From positions 1-20,877 of the forward strand of contig DXJF01000044.1 of NCBI GenBank assembly GCA_019057375.1: 20,877 nt of DNA, in the 5' to 3' direction. Shown one piece after another: positions 1,007-8,290 of the stretch. The translations under genes and the position numbers were made by a program. The notes below the pieces were generated by a model. The model had not been told where the DNA came from. It saw nothing but the letters and a program-made list of their open reading frames with translations, and searched no databases. This DNA is from Candidatus Heimdallarchaeota archaeon (GTDB lineage: Archaea > Asgardarchaeota > Heimdallarchaeia > Heimdallarchaeales > Heimdallarchaeaceae). Positions within the stretch are counted from its first letter, which is position 1; each line of letters starts with the position of its first letter.

Positions 1007-2161
1007 ATGGCTTCGTCTACATCCACGAAACAAGTAATGATAAGTAAAAACGACCAAAAAGATTTTTTGACAGAATGTGTTGATATTGCAATAGGAGAAG
1101 AAACAGGTTCTCCTTATATGATAGGACTAGCAGCTGAGAAAGGGATAAAGAAGGGAGATATAAACAGCTGGGAAGAATTAGCAGAACAATTTGGACCAAC
1201 AGGCCCAAATATTTTCAGAGACAAATCGATAATGTTTACAACAACAAAATGGGCACATGAATACTATGCGAAGAATCCAGGAACAGAAATGCAGGTAGCA
1301 GAAACAGGCGGTACTACAGGAGCTCCTAAGAAAAACATACTTTTTGCAAACACTCTTAGGAACGATTTTGACAACATGGACTATTTTAGTCTTGATACAG
1401 ATACTTTCAATGTCTTAGCTAAAGTCTGTGAAGGTCAGTTCGAAGATTTTGGTATTCCTAGAGATTTAACCTACCTTGCAACAGTACCTACAGGTCCACA
1501 TACTATAGGAAAATGGACTCTGAAGAGCTTTGAACGTGATTTTGCTAAATCTGTCTTCTTGATAGATATGGACCCTCGTTTTGTTAAAGTTGCAATGATG
1601 GCTGACCCCAAGATTGGTGGTATGTATCTTCAACATATGCAAGACCAAGTTGAACGCTTAGTCAAACAAGAATTTCCTTTTATCACTGGTATGTTTACCA
1701 CTGGGGTTCTCATCGAGAAGATGTTTCCATTGATTCAAAATCTTAAGGAACGTGGCAACCTTCAAGCTATCGTACACGGCGGTACTCCGCTCTCTAATGA
1801 GACTCTAAAGGTTCTCCGCGAAGATCTAGGCTTACCTGTTATGGGCTTTTATGGTCAATCCCTTTTCGGTACTGCTTTCGAATCTCCTGACCATGAAGAC
1901 TACTTTATCGACTACTATCCTCATCCTCGTATGAACATGTTTGTTATTGACAATCCAACTGACATTTCTACAAGAGTTAACTATGGAGAACAAGGAACTG
2001 TTGTCAGTCAGAGAATTAGTCCCGAAACAGTTATTCCTGCTTTAATCCAGACAGGTGATTTAGCTACTCTAATCAAGCCAAAAGGCAAATTCGGATTTGC
2101 AGATGGCGTACGAGATCCACATAGAGACTTAACTGATAATCAACAAATGGGCGTGTATTAA
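1007..2161 (+). CDS. EhpF/GriC-like adenylate-forming (ANL superfamily, PaaK-related) enzyme
   Basis: Motifs ETGSPY, ETGGTTGAPK (P-loop-like adenylation motif), ATVPTGPHTIG, IDMDPRFVK, GGTPL, YGEQG and C-terminal GVY match, in order, my recollection of Pantoea EhpF (ETGSPF, ESGGTTGAPK, AAIPTGPHIVG, IDIDPRWVK, GGTEL, YGERG, GVY). Confidence 0.8.
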   Translation: MASSTSTKQVMISKNDQKDFLTECVDIAIGEETGSPYMIGLAAEKGIKKGDINSWEELAEQFGPTGPNIFRDKSIMFTTTKWAHEYYAKNPGTEMQVAETGGTTGAPKKNILFANTLRNDFDNMDYFSLDTDTFNVLAKVCEGQFEDFGIPRDLTYLATVPTGPHTIGKWTLKSFERDFAKSVFLIDMDPRFVKVAMMADPKIGGMYLQHMQDQVERLVKQEFPFITGMFTTGVLIEKMFPLIQNLKERGNLQAIVHGGTPLSNETLKVLREDLGLPVMGFYGQSLFGTAFESPDHEDYFIDYYPHPRMNMFVIDNPTDISTRVNYGEQGTVVSQRISPETVIPALIQTGDLATLIKPKGKFGFADGVRDPHRDLTDNQQMGVY

Positions 2162-2173
2162 GTCCCCAAAAAA

Positions 2174-2209
2174 TTCATTTTTTCAACCTTGGGGAGGTTG
2201 AGTTTTCTT
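2174..2209. repeat. Palindromic repeat site, copy 1
   Basis: TTCATTTTTTCAACCTTGGGGAGGTTGAGTTTTCTT, with arms TCAACCT (2183-2189) and AGGTTGA (2195-2201) and spacer TGGGG. It is 34/36 identical to copy 2. Confidence 0.9.
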
Positions 2210-2226
2210 CCTTTTTTCTATAGATC

Positions 2227-3254
2227 CTACTTGACTACTTCATCTGGAAGTGTGAATACAAACAAGCACCGTTCATCCTTATTCAATACTGTTTCGAGCA
2301 ATTCTGTTTCCAAGGATACTCCAAGAATAGTATCCCAAAGCTGTTTACTCCATCCTGCACCACAGTAACAGAAATCCCCGTTAATCTCAAGATCATCGTT
2401 TCTTATAGTTTCTTTTACCCATCCACAGTGACAGTAGTGATATCTTCTAGCTATATCATCTGTTGCCTCTAGATGTTCAATAATTTTGAATGGAAATTTA
2501 GCTTTATACAATTTGTTACCTTCACGCTCCCCACCCCAAAATCCTTAAAGAGGGTTGTTTTGAATGAATTCCATTGCTTCTTTGTGTTCCCCATAAGTCT
2601 TAGTCATTTTCATCACCCAGTCATTGTGCATTTGTTCTAGCAGTAGATCTATATCTCCTAGCTTTTGATATAGTTTCTTGTATTTCATTGCTACACTACT
2701 TGAACTTAGAGAGCGTTTATGCAAACCACTGGCTAAAATTTCTTGCATAGTTTTTTCATCTAATTCATTTCCATTTTTTGCATGACTTGACATATGTAAC
2801 AGCTCTTTTTCTTAGGTGAAGAATTTTGTTTAATATTTTCTTTACCCTCTAAAATCTGATTTACTTTATCTTGGGAAAGATGCTTATTCAATTCCTTCTC
2901 TAGATTAATTACAAACTTAGGTTGATTCATCAACTCTTTTTTGAACTCTTTGGATTTGGGTTCATAAATTTGTTTGAGTTTATCAAGATGAGTAACTAAT
3001 TCTTCTTTCCCTACAAAGCTAAGATAAAATCTCAAAATATAATTACCATACGAACTATTATATGTCACCCAGTTTTGATAATCATCATAAATATACTCAA
3101 AATAATCAGAAAGAATTGACTCATTTACCAATTCAAGTTTTAGGTTTTGTTGTTGGAGAAATTGCTGAAATAATCTAAATCCTTCAACGTAATCATCATA
3201 TTTTTTTACTTTCTTTTCTTTTCTCATATAAATTTCAAAGTCTTCTAAGCTCAT
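2227..3254 (-). pseudogene. Disrupted DUF6144-like protein (helical N-terminal domain; C-terminal Cys-rich domain with YCHC..W..ET, FCYCGAGW, C.F motifs)
   Basis: Three track ORFs join into one gene. 2545..2793 and 2227..2511 are in the same frame, separated only by TAA at 2545-2547 (NNPL*GFWGGEREGNKLYKAK). 2760..3254 joins 2545..2793 if one A is restored near 2766-2771 (QKMENELDEKTMQEILA). The family call is from motif recognition. Confidence 0.75.
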
Positions 3255-3282
3255 TTCAAACAGAAATTGTAAACTCTTTCAC

Positions 3283-3290
3283 TATAAAAA
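3283..3290 (-). promoter_or_regulatory. Putative TATA box of the DUF6144-like module
   Basis: TTTTTATA on the minus strand, 29-36 bp upstream of ATG3254. Confidence 0.45.
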
Positions 3291-3360
3291 GATTTTATCA
3301 ATCCAATACTCTGGAGACTTAATGACAATTATCAGATTGGAGTTTATTAAGTCCTATACA

Positions 3361-3396
3361 TTCATTTTTTCAACCTTAGGGAGGTTGATTTTTCTT
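3361..3396. repeat. Palindromic repeat site, copy 2
   Basis: TTCATTTTTTCAACCTTAGGGAGGTTGATTTTTCTT, with arms at 3370-3376 and 3382-3388 and spacer TAGGG. Confidence 0.9.
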
Positions 3397-3412
3397 TCTT
3401 GCCAATAGTCTT

Positions 3413-3817
3413 TTATGAAATGTGTTGGTTTGCTGTTGATTTTGTTTGCCCAACAAGGGACAATATTCCTCCTGATAGAACAAACAATCCTCCTGCTCCT
3501 CCAGTTATGAAACCAACAACTATCATTATTACTGCTATCACTGTAATATCCTTAATCCACGGACCAGTTTTCGCTTTCTTTTGTAACCAATCCCAAATTA
3601 GGAAGAGAACTAGTACTCCCAGAAGTAGCATTATCAAACCATTCAACCAAAAGATTCCTGTAAAGGAAAGAAATGACATTCCTCCTACTACTTCTAAACC
3701 TCTAGCAGCTTTCGCTTCAGCGATAATGGTTAATAAACCCTGTATCACAAGAATAAATCCACCAATCAATGTATTTATTCTTCCGCAAGTTAATCCACAA
3801 GCTCTTTCATTTATCAT
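3413..3817 (-). CDS. Hypothetical small membrane protein (3-4 TM, Gly-rich)
   Basis: 134-aa ORF with hydrophobic Gly-rich helices and a TTTATATA box at 3839-3846 upstream. Confidence 0.75.
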   Translation of the reverse strand: MINERACGLTCGRINTLIGGFILVIQGLLTIIAEAKAARGLEVVGGMSFLSFTGIFWLNGLIMLLLGVLVLFLIWDWLQKKAKTGPWIKDITVIAVIMIVVGFITGGAGGLFVLSGGILSLVGQTKSTANQHIS

Positions 3818-3838
3818 ATAAATCCATTAATTATAAGG

Positions 3839-3846
3839 TATATAAA
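3839..3846 (-). promoter_or_regulatory. Putative TATA box for 3413..3817
   Basis: TTTATATA on the minus strand, 22-29 bp upstream of ATG3817. Confidence 0.5.
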
Positions 3847-3920
3847 TTTGCAGCAAAATACCTAGCTTAAATAGCTAAAAGAGCTCAATAATCTTATAGA
3901 TAGAGTTGTAAAAATCTTAG

Positions 3921-3960
3921 TTTTCAACCTTAGGAGATTGATTTTTTTCTCTTACTTTTT
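3921..3960. repeat. Palindromic repeat site, copy 3
   Basis: TTTTCAACCTTAGGAGATTGATTTTTTTCTCTTACTTTTT, with left arm TCAACCT (3924-3930), spacer TAGG and variant right arm AGATTGA (3935-3941). It shares CTCTTACTTTTT with copy 4. Confidence 0.85.
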
Positions 3961-4372
3961 ATAATATTCTGACAAATTTCTTGTATTCTTTCGGAGTTTT
4001 TTTCAAAAATTTCTCATCTGCAGTGATCAATTTCCCTTCTCTTATTTTTGCTAATGCTACATAAGCCGAATCATATAAGGAGAGTTCACTCTTCATAGAT
4101 ATTTCTATGGACTTACCTGCTAGTTCTTTGTCAAGTGTGATGAATTCTATTCCATAATTTATTATTGTATCAAAAATTCTTTCTATTTCTTCTTGCTTAT
4201 GTAACTTGATATATTTTAAAGCATTCAAAACTTCATATAAAATCAGATTTGGTGCGATTAAATTAAGTTTTCCCTTGATATAATTGTCCCGTATTTCTAT
4301 TGCAGATTCAGATTTTATTTCATTTACGAACCATTTAACTAATACACTTGCATCAATCACTAGGAGTTCCAT
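3959..4372 (-). CDS. vapC: PIN-domain ribonuclease toxin (VapC family)
   Basis: VIDASVLVKW, YEVLNALK, YDSAYVALA and LITADEK are the conserved acidic PIN motifs. The gene overlaps the 3' end of the upstream antitoxin. Confidence 0.93.
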   Translation of the reverse strand: MELLVIDASVLVKWFVNEIKSESAIEIRDNYIKGKLNLIAPNLILYEVLNALKYIKLHKQEEIERIFDTIINYGIEFITLDKELAGKSIEISMKSELSLYDSAYVALAKIREGKLITADEKFLKKTPKEYKKFVRIL

Positions 4373-4598
4373 ATCTATTATCTCTCCAATTGCGGATTAG
4401 TTCTGTTGAATCCCACTTTGAGGGAGCATCTTTTCTCAATTCCTCGTTTGAAAGTAGAGCTTCTGCAATATTTTTATTTTCTTCCTGATTTATTATCTTC
4501 AAAATAGCTTCTCTAAGCTCTTCACTCCAATTAATGTGGTTTAATTTCTTCATTTTCCTCTTTATCTCATCAGGTACTCGAACACTAATTGACGTCAT
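4353..4598 (-). CDS. vapB: Ribbon-helix-helix antitoxin (VapB-like), 81 aa
   Basis: MTSISVRVPDEIKRKMKKLNHINWSEELREAI is an RHH-type archaeal antitoxin start. The real start is probably ATG4598 rather than 4715, because a TATA-like box lies at 4625-4635. Confidence 0.85.
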   Translation of the reverse strand: MTSISVRVPDEIKRKMKKLNHINWSEELREAILKIINQEENKNIAEALLSNEELRKDAPSKWDSTELIRNWRDNRYGTPSD

Positions 4599-4608
4599 TG
4601 TATATACG

Positions 4609-4635
4609 GTATGACATGTCGTACATATATTTTTC
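4609..4635 (-). promoter_or_regulatory. vapBC promoter with overlapping palindromic operator
   Basis: Imperfect palindrome GTATGACATGTCGTAC (4609-4624, perfect core GACATGTC) lies between the start codon and GAAAAATATAT (minus strand, 4625-4635). Confidence 0.6.
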
Positions 4636-4651
4636 TGTTCGAAATATTCTC

Positions 4652-4690
4652 TTTTTTCAATCTTTGGGAGGTTGATTTCTCTTACTTTTT
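4652..4690. repeat. Palindromic repeat site, copy 4 (overlaps the nitrilase 3' end)
   Basis: TTTTTTCAATCTTTGGGAGGTTGATTTCTCTTACTTTTT, with variant left arm TCAATCT (4657-4663), spacer TTGGG and right arm AGGTTGA (4669-4675). Confidence 0.85.
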
Positions 4691-5571
4691 TGTTTCTTTG
4701 CTTTGAATCTATCAAAAATAGTTGACAAGGCTAGATCTATGTTTTTTGTTATATGAATTACTCTAGCTAATTTCACATATATTTTTCTAATTGTTCTCTT
4801 TACAAGCTTCTGTTTTACAATTCCTATTTCATGGTATAAGTATTGTTCTTTTTCCTTCCCTTTTACACATATTTCTCCTACTGGGTTGGTGATTGTTAAC
4901 CACCCATCCCAAAAATGCCCTCCTTCTTCTCCATATCTATTTGCATTTACTATCCAAGCATTATAGCTTCTTGCTAGATGACCTATCCCAAATTCTCTTG
5001 GGTCTTCATCATCTGCTAAACTATGAATTATAAGGTCTAGATTACTTTTCTTCAAAGCTTTGTTAACTTCTTTGCTCTGTACATCATAACAAATAACTAT
5101 CCCTGTCTTTACATCTTTTATCTTAGCAATTGTAACTAAAACTTCTCCTGGAGTGAAGAACTTTTCTCTCATTTTTGTTTTTCGATGAACTGCTACAATT
5201 TTACCTTCTGTATCAATTAACACCTGAGAATTGTAGAATCCTTGCTGATCCTTCTCACTAATTCCAAAACAGATGTAGACATTATTTTTATCGGCTAACT
5301 CTGATATAAGCTGGGTTGTTTCTCCAGGAATATTTTCTGCAATTCTATGATGATATTCAGCAGTTTTATCAAAATTAAAAAACCAACCAGTTATTGTTTC
5401 TCCAAAAACAATTAACTCAACTTGAGGATGATTCTCCTTTATTACTGTAATCAGCTTGGTCATTTTCAATAAATTCTTTTCAGGATTTTCATCACAAATC
5501 ATGGAAACAGAAGCAATTTTAAGTTTTAAAGCAGCTTTAGAAGTATCATAGAGAAATCTTTTCAAACCCAT
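4657..5571 (-). CDS. Carbon-nitrogen hydrolase (nitrilase superfamily)
   Basis: Catalytic triad contexts FGETI (Glu), HRKTK (Lys) and ICYD (Cys). Confidence 0.9.
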   Translation of the reverse strand: MGLKRFLYDTSKAALKLKIASVSMICDENPEKNLLKMTKLITVIKENHPQVELIVFGETITGWFFNFDKTAEYHHRIAENIPGETTQLISELADKNNVYICFGISEKDQQGFYNSQVLIDTEGKIVAVHRKTKMREKFFTPGEVLVTIAKIKDVKTGIVICYDVQSKEVNKALKKSNLDLIIHSLADDEDPREFGIGHLARSYNAWIVNANRYGEEGGHFWDGWLTITNPVGEICVKGKEKEQYLYHEIGIVKQKLVKRTIRKIYVKLARVIHITKNIDLALSTIFDRFKAKKQKSKRNQPPKD

Positions 5572-5619: not shown

Positions 5620-5982
5620 TTAAATTGGTTCATCAGCAACAGAAACTGAACAAAGTATATACTCATCTGAATGTACAACAGTATATTGTTCATTTAAATC
5701 TAAAGAAGCAAGCAACTCCATATAGAGATTTCTTAATTTCAGCGGGTTAAGTTGAGTTACAGTAAAAGTGTAATTTGATTTCTTTTCTAGAATATCAAAA
5801 TTAAATCCATATGAATGGTCTTCCGCCAAAAACTCTGCAATTTTCTTTCGCCAATTTAAAACAGAACTAGATGGTTTTGATTTGCAAAATTCTAATATGA
5901 AACTCTCTGTTTCTAGTATTCTTTCCCCATTTGAAAAGAGAAGATAAGCAATCTTATGAATCTCATCTTGAAACCTATCCAT
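5620..5982 (-). CDS. Hypothetical protein
   Basis: 120-aa ORF filling the gap between co-oriented genes, with no motif recognised. Confidence 0.65.
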   Translation of the reverse strand: MDRFQDEIHKIAYLLFSNGERILETESFILEFCKSKPSSSVLNWRKKIAEFLAEDHSYGFNFDILEKKSNYTFTVTQLNPLKLRNLYMELLASLDLNEQYTVVHSDEYILCSVSVADEPI

Positions 5983-6058
5983 CAGTACATCAGTATGTCA
6001 ATACTATATAAAAACCAAAATTAGTTAATGTTATTCCCTCTTTCAAAGTCGTTGTATC

Positions 6059-6925
6059 TCATCCATCAATTGTATGTATGTGTTTGTTAATCATTTTTGC
6101 ATACTCTACTACACCTGGTTTAATATGCATAAAATTGTAATCAGGAATTTCTATTAGAGTGCTTCTTTCTATTAAATTACTCACTTCTCTTGTTTTTTCT
6201 ATTCTGTGATATTTATCATCTGAAGTAGTAAAAATTGTTACGGGACAATTTATTTTCTGATAATCGTCTGAAGCATTCCACCTTCTCATCTTTGAGCATC
6301 TCTTCCATCTCCCAACATCAATATTCGTAACTCGTTCATAATATACTTTCTTTTGAAAACCAGGAGCCACTCTATTTCTAAGATATCTCTTAGCTATCCT
6401 TTTACCAACTCGTTCCAAGAAGAAAGTAGGTAACATAAAAGCTAATTGAGTAGATATTTTTGGGTAGCTTGAACGAATAAAAGGTCCAATGAAGACACAC
6501 CCTCTAGGTTTCACCCAGTTTTGTGCTAAACAATGGGCTACATAGTAGACACCGAAGCTAGAACCAATAAAAACGATATTCTCTTCTTTGATTTTTAAAT
6601 GATGAATAGTTTCAACAATGTCAAGTGCTATTCGATGAATTGTACATTGTTTTTTCTTTTGTAGATCAATTGTTGGTTTCTCTCTAGAGTCAATTATAAC
6701 AAGATCGAAGTCTTTGTACAACTCATCCCAAAAGTCTGTCCAAGAATAAATACCAGGACCTGCTCCTTGAATAAAGAAGATTGTAGGATTATTAGAACCT
6801 GCATGTTTTGTTGAATATAAACACTGAATTTCTTGCTCATCAGACATGAGAATTTGCTCTTTAGTTGATTCTTTGATGAAAATCATTTCTTGAGGAAATT
6901 CTTCTTCTAATGAGTTAAACATCAT
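6059..6925 (-). CDS. Alpha/beta-fold hydrolase
   Basis: Nucleophile elbow GSSFG (GxSxG), oxyanion-like segment FFIQGAG, and a late Asp/His region (SDDKY...FMH). Confidence 0.85.
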   Translation of the reverse strand: MMFNSLEEEFPQEMIFIKESTKEQILMSDEQEIQCLYSTKHAGSNNPTIFFIQGAGPGIYSWTDFWDELYKDFDLVIIDSREKPTIDLQKKKQCTIHRIALDIVETIHHLKIKEENIVFIGSSFGVYYVAHCLAQNWVKPRGCVFIGPFIRSSYPKISTQLAFMLPTFFLERVGKRIAKRYLRNRVAPGFQKKVYYERVTNIDVGRWKRCSKMRRWNASDDYQKINCPVTIFTTSDDKYHRIEKTREVSNLIERSTLIEIPDYNFMHIKPGVVEYAKMINKHIHTIDG

Positions 6926-6988
6926 TTTCTTTACTTTCTAATAGCTCTTATATAATTATTGATTTCATATCACTGTAAGAAATATTAG

Positions 6989-8290
6989 TTAATCAAGTTT
7001 TATTTTTTGTAAAGGTGAGAAGTAAGCAATTCTTCCTCTTCCAGCCATAACTTTTCCATCTTTAATTACATGAGAAAAATTCAACGGATCAACAGCCTCT
7101 GAGATGTCTTCTAGAGGATTTTTATCACTAATAACTATGTCAGCCAATTTTCCCTTTTCAATCGAACCAATTTTATCATCTAGCCAAATAGCACGAGCAC
7201 CTTCAATAGTTGCAGATTGCATGGCTTGAACAGGAGTCATGCCGATGTCATCAACCATGAATTGCATCTCCAATCCAGTATTTCCATGAAAATTACCAGG
7301 AGTAGCAGCGTCAGTTCCAATTGCAATTTTAACACCTTTCTCTAAAGCTATCTGATGATTTTCTTTTGCTTTATTAAAACACTCCATAATCTTCTGTTGA
7401 ACTTCAGGAGGCATCTGTTTGTGAATACTAGAACTAGCTAAACAGACAATCGCTGAACGAGTTGGAATCAAGTAGGTTCCTTTCGCGACCATCATCTTAG
7501 CTGTTTCTTCAGTTATAAAAGTACCATGTTCAATGGTATCAAAGCCAGCTCTGACAGCAGCTTGTATTCCAGCATTTCCATGAGCGTGGCAACCGACATG
7601 CATTCCAATTCTGTGAGCTTCTTCTCGCATAGCAACAAGTTCTTCATCGGTCCAGAGAACTAAACTAACCTTTGACTCCATCCCGTGAAGTACACCACCG
7701 GTTGTCGCAGTTTTAATGAAATCAGCTCCGAGTTTTTTCTGATCTCTAACAGCATATTTCACATTGTCAACCCCTGCTTTTATAACAGAGATTTCTCTAT
7801 CAAAATCAACCAAAGCTTGAGGACCAATAGATTCTGAATCACCCCATTGCCAGATTCCTGTTTCGGATCCGACCAATCTCGGTCCTGCAAAAATACCATA
7901 ATTGAGAATTCGTTTTAGTGAGGAAACAACCCCTTTGTAACTACCAGCATCTCTTACACAAGTAAAACCACTTACTAGATGCTTCTGTGCATTATCAAGA
8001 GCAATAAAATTATACATGTCTCTCTTTGTTCTGAGGTATTCTCTTTCATATTGAGGATCACCAGTTCCACTAAGATGAACATGACACTCAACCATACCAG
8101 GAAGGACAGTTTTTCCTGTAGCATCAATAATCTTATCAGTTTCTTCTTTCTCGAAACTTCCTTCATCTCCCACCCAAACAATCTCTTTGTTTTTAACTAC
8201 TATAGTCAGATTCTCATTTATTTTCCCTTCAATAGAATCGAAAACATTCCCCGATTTTATTACAAGTCTTGTATCTTCAGACATAAGCAA
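6989..8290 (-). CDS. Metal-dependent amidohydrolase (Xaa-Pro dipeptidase/imidazolonepropionase-like)
   Basis: PGMVECHVHL (HxH), GFTCVRDAG, GADFIK (carbamylated Lys), CHAHG, IEHG, IGTDA and GSIEKGKLAD. The start is probably ATG8284. Confidence 0.92.
   Translation of the reverse strand: MLMSEDTRLVIKSGNVFDSIEGKINENLTIVVKNKEIVWVGDEGSFEKEETDKIIDATGKTVLPGMVECHVHLSGTGDPQYEREYLRTKRDMYNFIALDNAQKHLVSGFTCVRDAGSYKGVVSSLKRILNYGIFAGPRLVGSETGIWQWGDSESIGPQALVDFDREISVIKAGVDNVKYAVRDQKKLGADFIKTATTGGVLHGMESKVSLVLWTDEELVAMREEAHRIGMHVGCHAHGNAGIQAAVRAGFDTIEHGTFITEETAKMMVAKGTYLIPTRSAIVCLASSSIHKQMPPEVQQKIMECFNKAKENHQIALEKGVKIAIGTDAATPGNFHGNTGLEMQFMVDDIGMTPVQAMQSATIEGARAIWLDDKIGSIEKGKLADIVISDKNPLEDISEAVDPLNFSHVIKDGKVMAGRGRIAYFSPLQKIKLD

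Follow-up and report, generated by a model that had tools for sequence, protein, structure and literature searches.

The window examined in this work, a stretch of 20,877 nt that corresponds to contig DXJF01000044.1 of a Candidatus Heimdallarchaeota archaeon, carries a compact array of gene modules located downstream of a metabolic gene, designated here F1, and separated by co-oriented copies of a short repeated sequence, referred to here as the unit. Comparison with related genomes of the Heimdallarchaeaceae revealed that the array is anchored at F1 and limited to one locus, that its modules are gained, lost and reordered with breakpoints in the conserved core of the unit, that the histories of the modules are decoupled from that of the anchor gene, and that the core is under constraint. 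From these results, it is proposed that the array is a set of cassettes delimited by recombination at the units and served in trans by an enzyme encoded elsewhere in the host; taken as a whole, this is the best explanation that we can offer for the sequence data, and we give it about an even chance of being correct. The contig (C143) belongs to an assembly (G000) of 3.47 Mb with 33% GC, 159 contigs and a completeness of 89%.

The repeat unit and the anchor gene

An exact search of the window with the pattern TCAAYCT-N4-5-AGRTTGA gave four matches, at 2183-2201, 3370-3388, 3924-3941 and 4657-4675, where none is expected in shuffled sequence. In all four the G-rich loop of the palindrome is on the plus strand, so that the sites are co-oriented, as an earlier note on this DNA had described them. 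The resemblances pointed out in that note also hold: copies 1 and 2 are identical at 34 of 36 positions (2174-2209 and 3361-3396), and copies 3 and 4 have in common the sequence TCTCTTACTTTTT after the hairpin. Its observation that the window contains no other copy extends to the whole 3.47 Mb assembly, in which the exact pattern has no further match; when a profile of the four sites was compared with the complete assembly, the next best nhmmer match had an E value of only 0.29. The four copies of this genome are confined to 2.5 kb and relatives have one cluster per genome, which is not the distribution of repetitive extragenic palindromic (REP) sequences, bacterial interspersed mosaic elements or miniature inverted-repeat transposable elements. 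Being limited to one locus, the unit cannot be classed with dispersed terminators or REP-type repeats; the even spread of the motif that the note had named as the sign of such a repeat was not seen. No Rfam family matched at the units.

The palindromes are real, and the repeat to which they belong is larger than the note had assumed. Units 1 and 2 have ~90 nt in common, reaching the last codons of the plus-strand gene at 1007..2161, which is F1. A complete unit is formed by an optional remnant of the 3' end of F1, the sequence TTCATTTTTT, a hairpin of 7 bp with the G-rich loop, and the sequence TTTTCTTTTCTT; TTCATTTTTT, the hairpin and TTTTCTTTTCTT make up a conserved core of ~40 nt that is asymmetric. 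On either side of the palindrome the T-rich flank belongs to the same strand, and because of this the site has no extended symmetry. Hence the description of the site as minimal has to be replaced by that of an asymmetric core of ~40 nt, often accompanied by a 3' remnant of the anchor gene, in an array anchored on F1. An alignment of 46 units indicated that the best-conserved portion is the loop, the right arm and the tail (GGGAGGTTGA followed by TTTTCTTTTCTT), with a conservation of 90% or more; the left arm and the TTCATTTTTT that precedes it are somewhat less conserved. Over the same 46 units GGGAGGTTGA and TTTTCTTT are at least 90% conserved, while F1 has diverged to ~70% nucleotide identity.

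Unit 1 (2120..2221, plus strand; 80 bits with nhmmer) contains the true 3' end of F1 (ending in RDLTDNQQMGVY and the stop codon), a spacer, TTCATTTTTT, the hairpin with the loop TGGGG, and a T-rich tail. Unit 2 (3314..3404, plus strand; 66 bits; repeat families D1 and D12) has a decayed remnant of the F1 3' end with a deletion of 1 nt, a hairpin with the loop TAGGG and a T-rich tail. In unit 3 (3863..3958, plus strand; 27 bits), which has a counterpart in the relative G011, there is no F1 remnant, and the hairpin, with a loop of 4 nt (TAGG) and the right-arm variant AGATTGA, is followed by a T-rich tail. Finally, unit 4 (4640..4690, plus strand; 32 bits) shows the left-arm variant TCAATCT, the loop TTGGG and a T-rich tail, and lies 59-77 nt upstream of the start of a vapB gene.

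F1 (1007..2161, plus strand) codes for a PaaK/ThnN/EhpF-like adenylate-forming enzyme of 384 aa, whose homologues are named ThnN or PaaK-like AMP-dependent synthetases and which has a weak match to the Pfam AMP-binding family; being an adenylate-forming enzyme, it was discarded as a possible recombinase. The array begins at its stop codon. Across congeners, most unit copies are preceded by the motif ATGGGnGTnTAyTAr, which codes for M-G-V-Y-stop, the C-terminus of F1, and up to ~20 further F1 codons may precede it. In a protein-level search the remnants covered residues 365-384 at most, and never extended beyond; on the left they begin anywhere between 20 and 60 nt ahead of the F1 stop codon, and some units lack a remnant altogether.

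Distribution of the unit

F1 is a single-copy gene, and in at least 14 congeneric species of Heimdallarchaeaceae a unit cluster is found immediately downstream of it and on the same strand. The related loci come from metagenome-assembled genomes of Candidatus Heimdallarchaeota / Heimdallarchaeaceae, and in the congeneric genomes the same hairpin with the same loop is present in 2-5 copies clustered per locus. The conserved right half of the unit was detected in 18 of 24 genomes of congeners and in both genomes of a sister genus (2/2); it was found in none of four genomes that represent three further genera of the family, nor in any of the 16 from neighbouring families. Within a genome its copies cluster on a single contig, all on the same strand, and the reversed pattern used as a control gave ~0 matches. 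Distant orthologues of F1, with 48-54% identity, end in an ordinary T-rich tract, and neither the hairpin nor the toxin-antitoxin array is present at them; therefore, F1 in general does not need the unit.

In the sister genus, the genome G042 has one solitary complete unit (locus L129, G042:C11, 10632-11365), with the full hairpin and the exact 24-nt right half, located upstream of the promoter of a vapB gene. The adjoining vapBC pair is 78% identical at the nucleotide level to positions 3959-4683 of the window, and it lies in an unrelated context, between an open reading frame (ORF) of 170 aa and a gene for a transporter of the major facilitator superfamily; neither F1 nor a second unit was found near it. 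Here the core has remained perfect while the neighbouring vapBC drifted by 22%, which argues that the core is under a sequence constraint of its own. A scan of viral contigs gave 2 matches and one of metagenomes 40; according to the unit profile, a genuine unit is present on two short metagenomic contigs only, and the rest are chance matches. The genome G009 has a second cluster of co-oriented units with toxin-antitoxin and zinc-ribbon cargo (L022, G009:C106, 7522-15186). It adjoins genes that in G024 are found upstream of F1 and that in G009 have the opposite orientation, and it could be a second array, a rearrangement or the result of an assembly break.

Turnover of the modules between species

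The proposal made in the earlier note that the sites bound mobile gene modules agrees with what the relatives show. F1 and the distal flank, formed by the gene families F11-F12-F5, are kept across species, and the content between them differs in every genome; in every comparison the breakpoints of module gain, loss and reordering are the units, so that synteny breaks at the sites, as the note had suggested should be looked for. The edges of homology between genomes fall within a few nucleotides of the hairpins, at window positions 2174, 2217, 3378-3382, 3921 and 4695. At the last of these positions the homology to G011 ends, and the homology of the flank with G011, G009, G006 and the locus L062, which belongs to a close relative, resumes at 5630.

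The same modules occupy different ranks in different arrays. The vapBC module is third in the window, second in G011 and G009, and first in G018; the module with a DUF6144 gene is first in the window and precedes vapBC, versus fourth in G009, where it follows vapBC, and this fourth module matches the left part of module 1 at 94.8% identity. Module 2 is present in G011, G009, G001 and G006, and is precisely absent in L062, which has a hybrid unit instead; the left part of this hybrid is that of unit 2 (L062:4401, 57 of 60 positions) and it continues into the tail that elsewhere precedes vapBC. The most demanding case is given by the loci L037, with the module order A-B-D, and L039, with the order D-B-A in the same orientation, in which each nucleotide alignment runs from hairpin to hairpin. 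Excision and re-insertion are needed for this, and differential loss or inversion are insufficient. The same locus L062 also contains, at 4165-4430, a version of module 1 that has lost ~990 bp of its interior and kept its ends (~80 nt and ~130 nt); it is preceded by a degenerate unit (TCATCCT...TGGTTGA) and is reminiscent of the non-autonomous derivatives of mobile elements that keep only their ends.

In these comparisons, the tail after the hairpin goes with the downstream cargo and the F1 remnant stays with the upstream cargo; therefore, the exchange point is located inside the unit. The modules also have a history different from that of the anchor gene. Module A is 95.1% identical between L037 and L039, in which F1 is 87.5% identical, and between two groups of species the modules are 80-86% identical, versus 68-71% for F1. 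That the modules are more alike than F1 suggests a more recent common ancestry, which would mean that they have moved between species.

Two kinds of sequence variation were considered as scars of the crossover, and neither is decisive. Half-sites are no decisive mark of exact crossover points, since G018 and G009 lost the left arm after vapBC through a small deletion of ~22 nt that both share, and the other half-sites look degenerate. The reciprocal arm variants around vapBC are suggestive only; AGATTGA, at the left junction, is shared with G011, and TCAATCT, at the right junction, is not and recurs in unrelated units.

Folding of the hairpin

The stem pairs of 43 units were tallied site by site with a script, giving 301 stem cells, of which 260 are Watson-Crick pairs, 21 are G:T pairs on the plus strand, 4 are A/C combinations that would be G:T on the minus strand, and 16 are other mismatches; these counts overstate the number of independent events, given that the sites are related by descent. 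The asymmetry of the wobble pairs hints that the plus strand may be used as a folded single strand, either as RNA or as single-stranded DNA. No compensatory double change was detected in the stem among the 43 units, therefore the sequence, and not merely the pairing, is conserved. For units 3 and 4 the minimum-energy structure differs from the hairpin. Units 1 and 2 are the two best terminator-like matches of the window; a terminator layout is also seen for units that follow plus-strand cargo in relatives, and it is absent for the minus-strand genes of the window.

Search for a recombinase

No recombinase gene is present in any module or cargo block, or recognisable among the neighbours of F1, and the genes upstream of F1 have no recognisable domains. 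In the earlier note the sites had been interpreted in terms of tyrosine recombinases, and this enzymology is not supported. The tyrosine recombinase model PF00589 had no match with E <= 0.001 in G000 or in the array-rich congeners G002, G008, G009 and G011; these enzymes are patchy in the genus, and the five genomes that have the richest arrays gave no match. The XerA model NF040815 had no match in G000 either. Matches to this model are present in 12 of 24 congeners, versus a strong match in each of 16 genomes of the neighbouring families, and are missing in 4 of 5 genomes of other genera of the family. Likewise, the Y1 transposase (IS200/IS605) and the IS110-type transposase had no match in G000. 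The TnpB/Cas12f-like nuclease domain was detected in 27 genes of this genome (ORFs of about 400-750 aa), and none of these is located beside the four serine recombinase genes inspected.

Serine recombinases are the sole site-specific recombinases found in G000. There are four intact genes, of ~250 aa each, one of which, SR-A, is located at C16:9817-10563 and the others on C56, C127 and C118. SR-A has the catalytic motif YVRVSTADQ, and the best fold matches of its structural model (predicted local distance difference test score of 76) are the large serine integrases Bxb1, LI and PhiC31. It is present with 77-98% identity, in a partly syntenic context, in 22 of 24 congeners and in none of the 16 genomes of neighbouring families. 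Across the family, in which five genera were sampled, including two single-contig genomes, SR-A is 74-98% identical; a second paralogue is ~45% identical to it. Since XerA is missing from most of the family and SR-A is family-wide, the apparent exchange of XerA for serine recombinases is a trait of the family, wider than the unit. Serine recombinases could have replaced the Xer system of the chromosome in Heimdallarchaeaceae.

Origin of the joints

According to our proposal, the units would join the cassettes of an array that occupies a single locus and starts from the F1 stop codon, and whose modules would be inserted, deleted and reordered by recombination inside the core of ~40 nt. The asymmetry of this core, with T-tracts on the same strand on both sides, would give the array its uniform polarity. 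We infer that the joints could be made in trans by a site-specific recombinase encoded by the host, different from IntI or Xer, for which the only candidates found are the small serine recombinases such as SR-A. The parts of this proposal do not have the same strength. That recombination at the units shapes the array is, from the comparison of the sequences, highly probable; that this recombination is site-specific and directed by an enzyme, rather than homologous, would be nearly a matter of even chances, if anything slightly below.

The main contest is between this trans-acting host enzyme and homologous recombination between the repeats, which we consider to be on the unlikely side in spite of being the strongest of the alternatives. 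In this case, the terminator region of F1 would have been duplicated, and RadA-dependent recombination between direct repeats of ~40-100 nt would move the modules with no dedicated recombinase or site; exchange within the chromosome, between chromosome copies or with imported DNA of relatives would delete, circularise and re-insert them. A series of observations favours this possibility or, more generally, weighs against a dedicated enzyme. The junctions all lie where the repeat is nearly identical and best conserved, which is the place at which homologous recombination would be expected to resolve, and the crossover is not placeable more finely than the core of ~30-40 nt because the core is invariant between the partners. 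The array and its surroundings contain no recognisable recombinase gene, and the genome gave no match to tyrosine recombinases. The internal F1 remnants mostly resemble the resident F1 end and are not tied to a given cargo, as gene conversion would yield; a simple model in which each cassette carries its own site predicts otherwise. Five independent assemblies of this strain, with an identical F1 protein, have an identical array, that is, the array is stable at the strain level. The energies of the hairpins, of -6 to -9 kcal/mol, are no better than those of shuffled sequence, and several units without the left arm nonetheless persist in relatives, therefore the hairpin is not required for the unit to stay in place. 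As for the enzyme, all five genera of the family have SR-A, and in three of them the search for the unit gave nothing; no unit-like motif was found near the serine recombinase genes. Finally, unit 1 would also be a good hairpin-plus-T-tract terminator for F1 on the plus strand.

Nevertheless, any sequence would serve for homologous recombination, whereas the core keeps a conservation of at least 90% across species in which F1 is only ~70% identical, and it is intact in the solitary copy of the other genus, which has no partner for conversion. The invariant stretch of 30-40 nt would be a very short substrate, the remnants always end at <=20 codons, and the excess of G:T wobbles on the plus strand (21 versus 4 on the minus strand) points to a selected folded single strand. 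An enzyme is favoured because of this combination: a specific asymmetric core conserved across species and in the solitary copy, the wobble asymmetry and the very short invariant core. Which enzyme it would be is a separate question. The presence of SR-A in three genera without the unit rules it out as a genus-specific partner with the same distribution, and since SR-A is family-wide and the unit is not, SR-A is a candidate and not a supported partner, the link between both being weak. A more ambitious version of the proposal, which we regard as improbable, is that these XerA-poor Heimdallarchaeaceae would have an integron-like platform of gene capture run by a serine recombinase, in which the unit would be the chromosomal site of the enzyme, possibly also with a dif-like function, and toxin-antitoxin and accessory cassettes would be exchanged among species.

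The terminator-like character of unit 1 leads to another possibility, which is that the unit is a plain regulatory element, a terminator or insulator on the plus strand or an operator bound by a protein, that accompanies accessory genes, the region downstream of F1 being a generic hotspot of insertion. Unit 1 has exactly the layout of an intrinsic terminator for F1 on the plus strand, with the hairpin followed by the T-tract directly after the gene; this arrangement is also found after plus-strand cargo pairs, the wobble asymmetry fits an RNA hairpin of the plus strand, and the solitary unit of G042 is upstream of a vapB promoter. It is unlikely that the unit acts as a terminator or operator and takes no part in rearrangement, given that the breakpoints coincide with the units in every comparison and that the orientation of the units is constant whatever the strand of the cargo. 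In addition, hairpin terminators are not general in this DNA (13 in the window versus 9.0 +/- 3.3 in shuffles, which is not an enrichment), the motif is at no other gene end in the genome, and the F1 genes of outgroups terminate without a hairpin. Unlike in an intrinsic terminator, the unit is restricted to one locus, and the sequence of its loop and arms is conserved, not the pairing alone, with no compensatory changes.

A duplication of the target, in which staggered cuts at the edges of the F1-proximal unit of ~100 nt are repaired by copying the whole unit, as in CRISPR repeats or casposons, so that the internal units are fossil F1 3' ends, would account for remnants that are in frame, differ at synonymous-looking positions (M-G-V-Y-stop is spelled in several ways), are never longer than the last 17-20 codons and mostly resemble the resident or an ancestral F1 end, in units that are all co-oriented and anchored at F1; this is very unlikely, considering that the remnants lack a fixed left edge, which lies between 20 and 60 nt ahead of the stop codon, that many units lack a remnant, that the different ranks and the reversed order of the modules need excision and re-insertion and not just proximal addition, that the partition of tail and remnant between downstream and upstream cargo places the exchange point inside the unit, and that no Cas1- or casposase-like gene was seen at the locus, although no search was aimed at one.

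Genes of the window

The three modules of the window have their genes on the minus strand. Module 1 (2222..3313) includes a C-terminal fragment of a DUF6144 protein (2227-2511), which according to Pfam matches only the C-terminal third of this domain, and the ORFs 2545-2793 and 2760-3254, which overlap by 34 nt in different frames and are probably one frameshifted gene for a product of ~240 aa; from its sequence, this module looks decayed. Module 2 (3405..3862) contains a gene for a small membrane-like protein (3413-3817), with no family assignment, that is supported by ORF and gene calls. Two mirror ORFs lie over the same bases of this module, one of 140 aa on the plus strand (3399-3821) and the other of 134 aa on the minus strand (3413-3817); public gene calls favour the minus strand and neither has a family match. 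Clustering of ORFs split the orthologues of these mirror ORFs across strands, into the families F32 and F13.

Module 3 (3959..4598) is a vapBC pair, formed by a PIN toxin (3959-4372; Pfam PIN, E = 4.5e-16) and a ribbon-helix-helix antitoxin (4353-4598, with its ATG at 4598; RHH_12). The RHH_12/DUF6290-like antitoxin gene overlaps the PIN toxin gene by 20 nt, as is characteristic of a type II toxin-antitoxin system of the VapBC type. The next gene (4657..5571, minus strand) belongs to the nitrilase superfamily (Pfam CN_hydrolase, E = 6.6e-26); it is present in the array of this strain only and not in the relatives compared, and no unit separates it from the distal flank. The flank itself (5620..8290, minus strand) codes, according to family assignments, for a protein of 120 aa, an alpha/beta hydrolase and a Xaa-Pro dipeptidase-like amidohydrolase.

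It had been noted earlier that each site sits at or just past the stop codon of a minus-strand gene. This is correct for sites 1-3, located 18-26 nt past the stop codon of a minus-strand ORF; site 4 overlaps such an ORF, and the nitrilase gene does not simply end there, since its last ~14 codons (AKKQKSKRNQPPKD) and its stop codon are encoded by the T-tract and hairpin of unit 4, read from 4657-4700. The native 3' end of this gene was therefore probably replaced at the junction.

Across the genus the modules are of 0.5-5 kb and mostly contain toxin-antitoxin pairs. The recurrent ones include three kinds of VapB/PIN pair, an MNT/HepT pair, a MazF/PemK-like pair, and several pairs or single genes with no known function assigned; larger blocks contain a beta-lactamase-fold protein, NosD/beta-helix proteins, a Ras-like GTPase and zinc-ribbon proteins. 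In every mapped array the units are co-oriented, and the cargo genes are on both strands.

Comparison with known systems and significance

Of the ways in which prokaryotes acquire and rearrange small accessory genes, the best understood is that of cassette arrays bounded by recombination sites, namely integrons, the pdif modules of Acinetobacter and the arrays of integrative mobile elements exploiting Xer (IMEX). To our knowledge, all the cassette arrays bounded by sites depend on tyrosine recombinases. By its architecture and cargo, the array described here is closest to the chromosomal integron and to the cluster of attC sites lacking an integrase (CALIN), and next to IMEX and pdif modules; the features that define each of these systems are absent from it. 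We found no description of this array in the literature searched.

As in integrons and CALIN, including the Vibrio superintegrons that are rich in toxin-antitoxin cassettes, there is one locus per genome, with repeated co-oriented sites and small modules of one or two genes; the cassettes next to a conserved anchor differ in content and order from one close relative to another, many of them are toxin-antitoxin pairs, and none carries the recombinase. A folded single strand may matter in both cases, in view of the strand-asymmetric wobble pairs of the units. However, no IntI or any other tyrosine recombinase was found in the genome or beside the array, and a metabolic gene, whose last codons are contained in many units, provides the anchor with its 3' end, in place of an attI site beside intI. 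The earlier note had considered the site different from attC, and this is borne out by both its size and its symmetry. The palindrome has 18-19 bp, with arms of 7 bp and a loop of 4-5 nt, in a core of ~40 nt, in contrast to the 55-140 bp of attC sites with their R and L boxes and extrahelical bases; the similarity of the arms to YYYCAAC/GTTGA is loose, and they are only 9 nt apart. Archaeal integrons, defined by attC models, have been reported as enriched in Asgard archaea (Ghaly et al. 2022, PMC9668308); those Heimdallarchaeia genomes of its Data S1 that were consulted belong to other orders, Hodarchaeales and JABLTI01, and not to this genus.

The array shares with IMEX and with the Acinetobacter pdif modules that its modules have no recombinase and are bounded by copies of a short site, in tandem at a unique chromosomal location, which in those systems is a site of the host; their cargo commonly includes toxin-antitoxin systems, and both would presumably be served in trans by an enzyme of the host. 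A site of the pdif or dif type, as the earlier note had contemplated, does not agree with the size and symmetry observed, given that the arms of 7 bp and the loop of 4-5 nt differ from the 11-6-11 arrangement of dif and that the XerA model has no match in the genome. Moreover, the orientation of pdif sites alternates around the modules and here all copies are co-oriented, and nothing ties the unit to the resolution of chromosome dimers.

Integrative elements may also accumulate in tandem at the 3' end of a target gene, leaving attL/attR repeats of a tRNA or protein gene, as in the tycheposon islands of Prochlorococcus. The array resembles them in that partial copies of the 3' end of the target gene separate cargo blocks downstream of the intact gene, and some blocks have no integrase. 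Nevertheless, an integrase was found in no block of about 16 arrays, the blocks may be as small as 0.55 kb, and the exchange point maps to the hairpin located 3' of the gene and not within the duplicated coding remnant. Aloposons (PMC8813620), which are large elements that integrate at tRNA genes, were considered and are unrelated.

Three features set the array apart from these systems: its site is new, asymmetric and far shorter than theirs, it is anchored where a metabolic gene ends, and searches of the host gave no tyrosine recombinase. Should the joints be the work of an enzyme, Asgard archaea would have a gene-capture system of a new type, with a compact pair of site and recombinase; if homologous recombination between conserved terminator repeats suffices, it would follow that an integron-like array can arise without dedicated machinery. 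Either way, the array is a defined hotspot of gene flow among the species of Heimdallarchaeaceae, and should the reading that involves a serine recombinase be true, no earlier cassette platform would be known to work without a tyrosine recombinase, and this one would belong to the archaeal lineage closest to eukaryotes.

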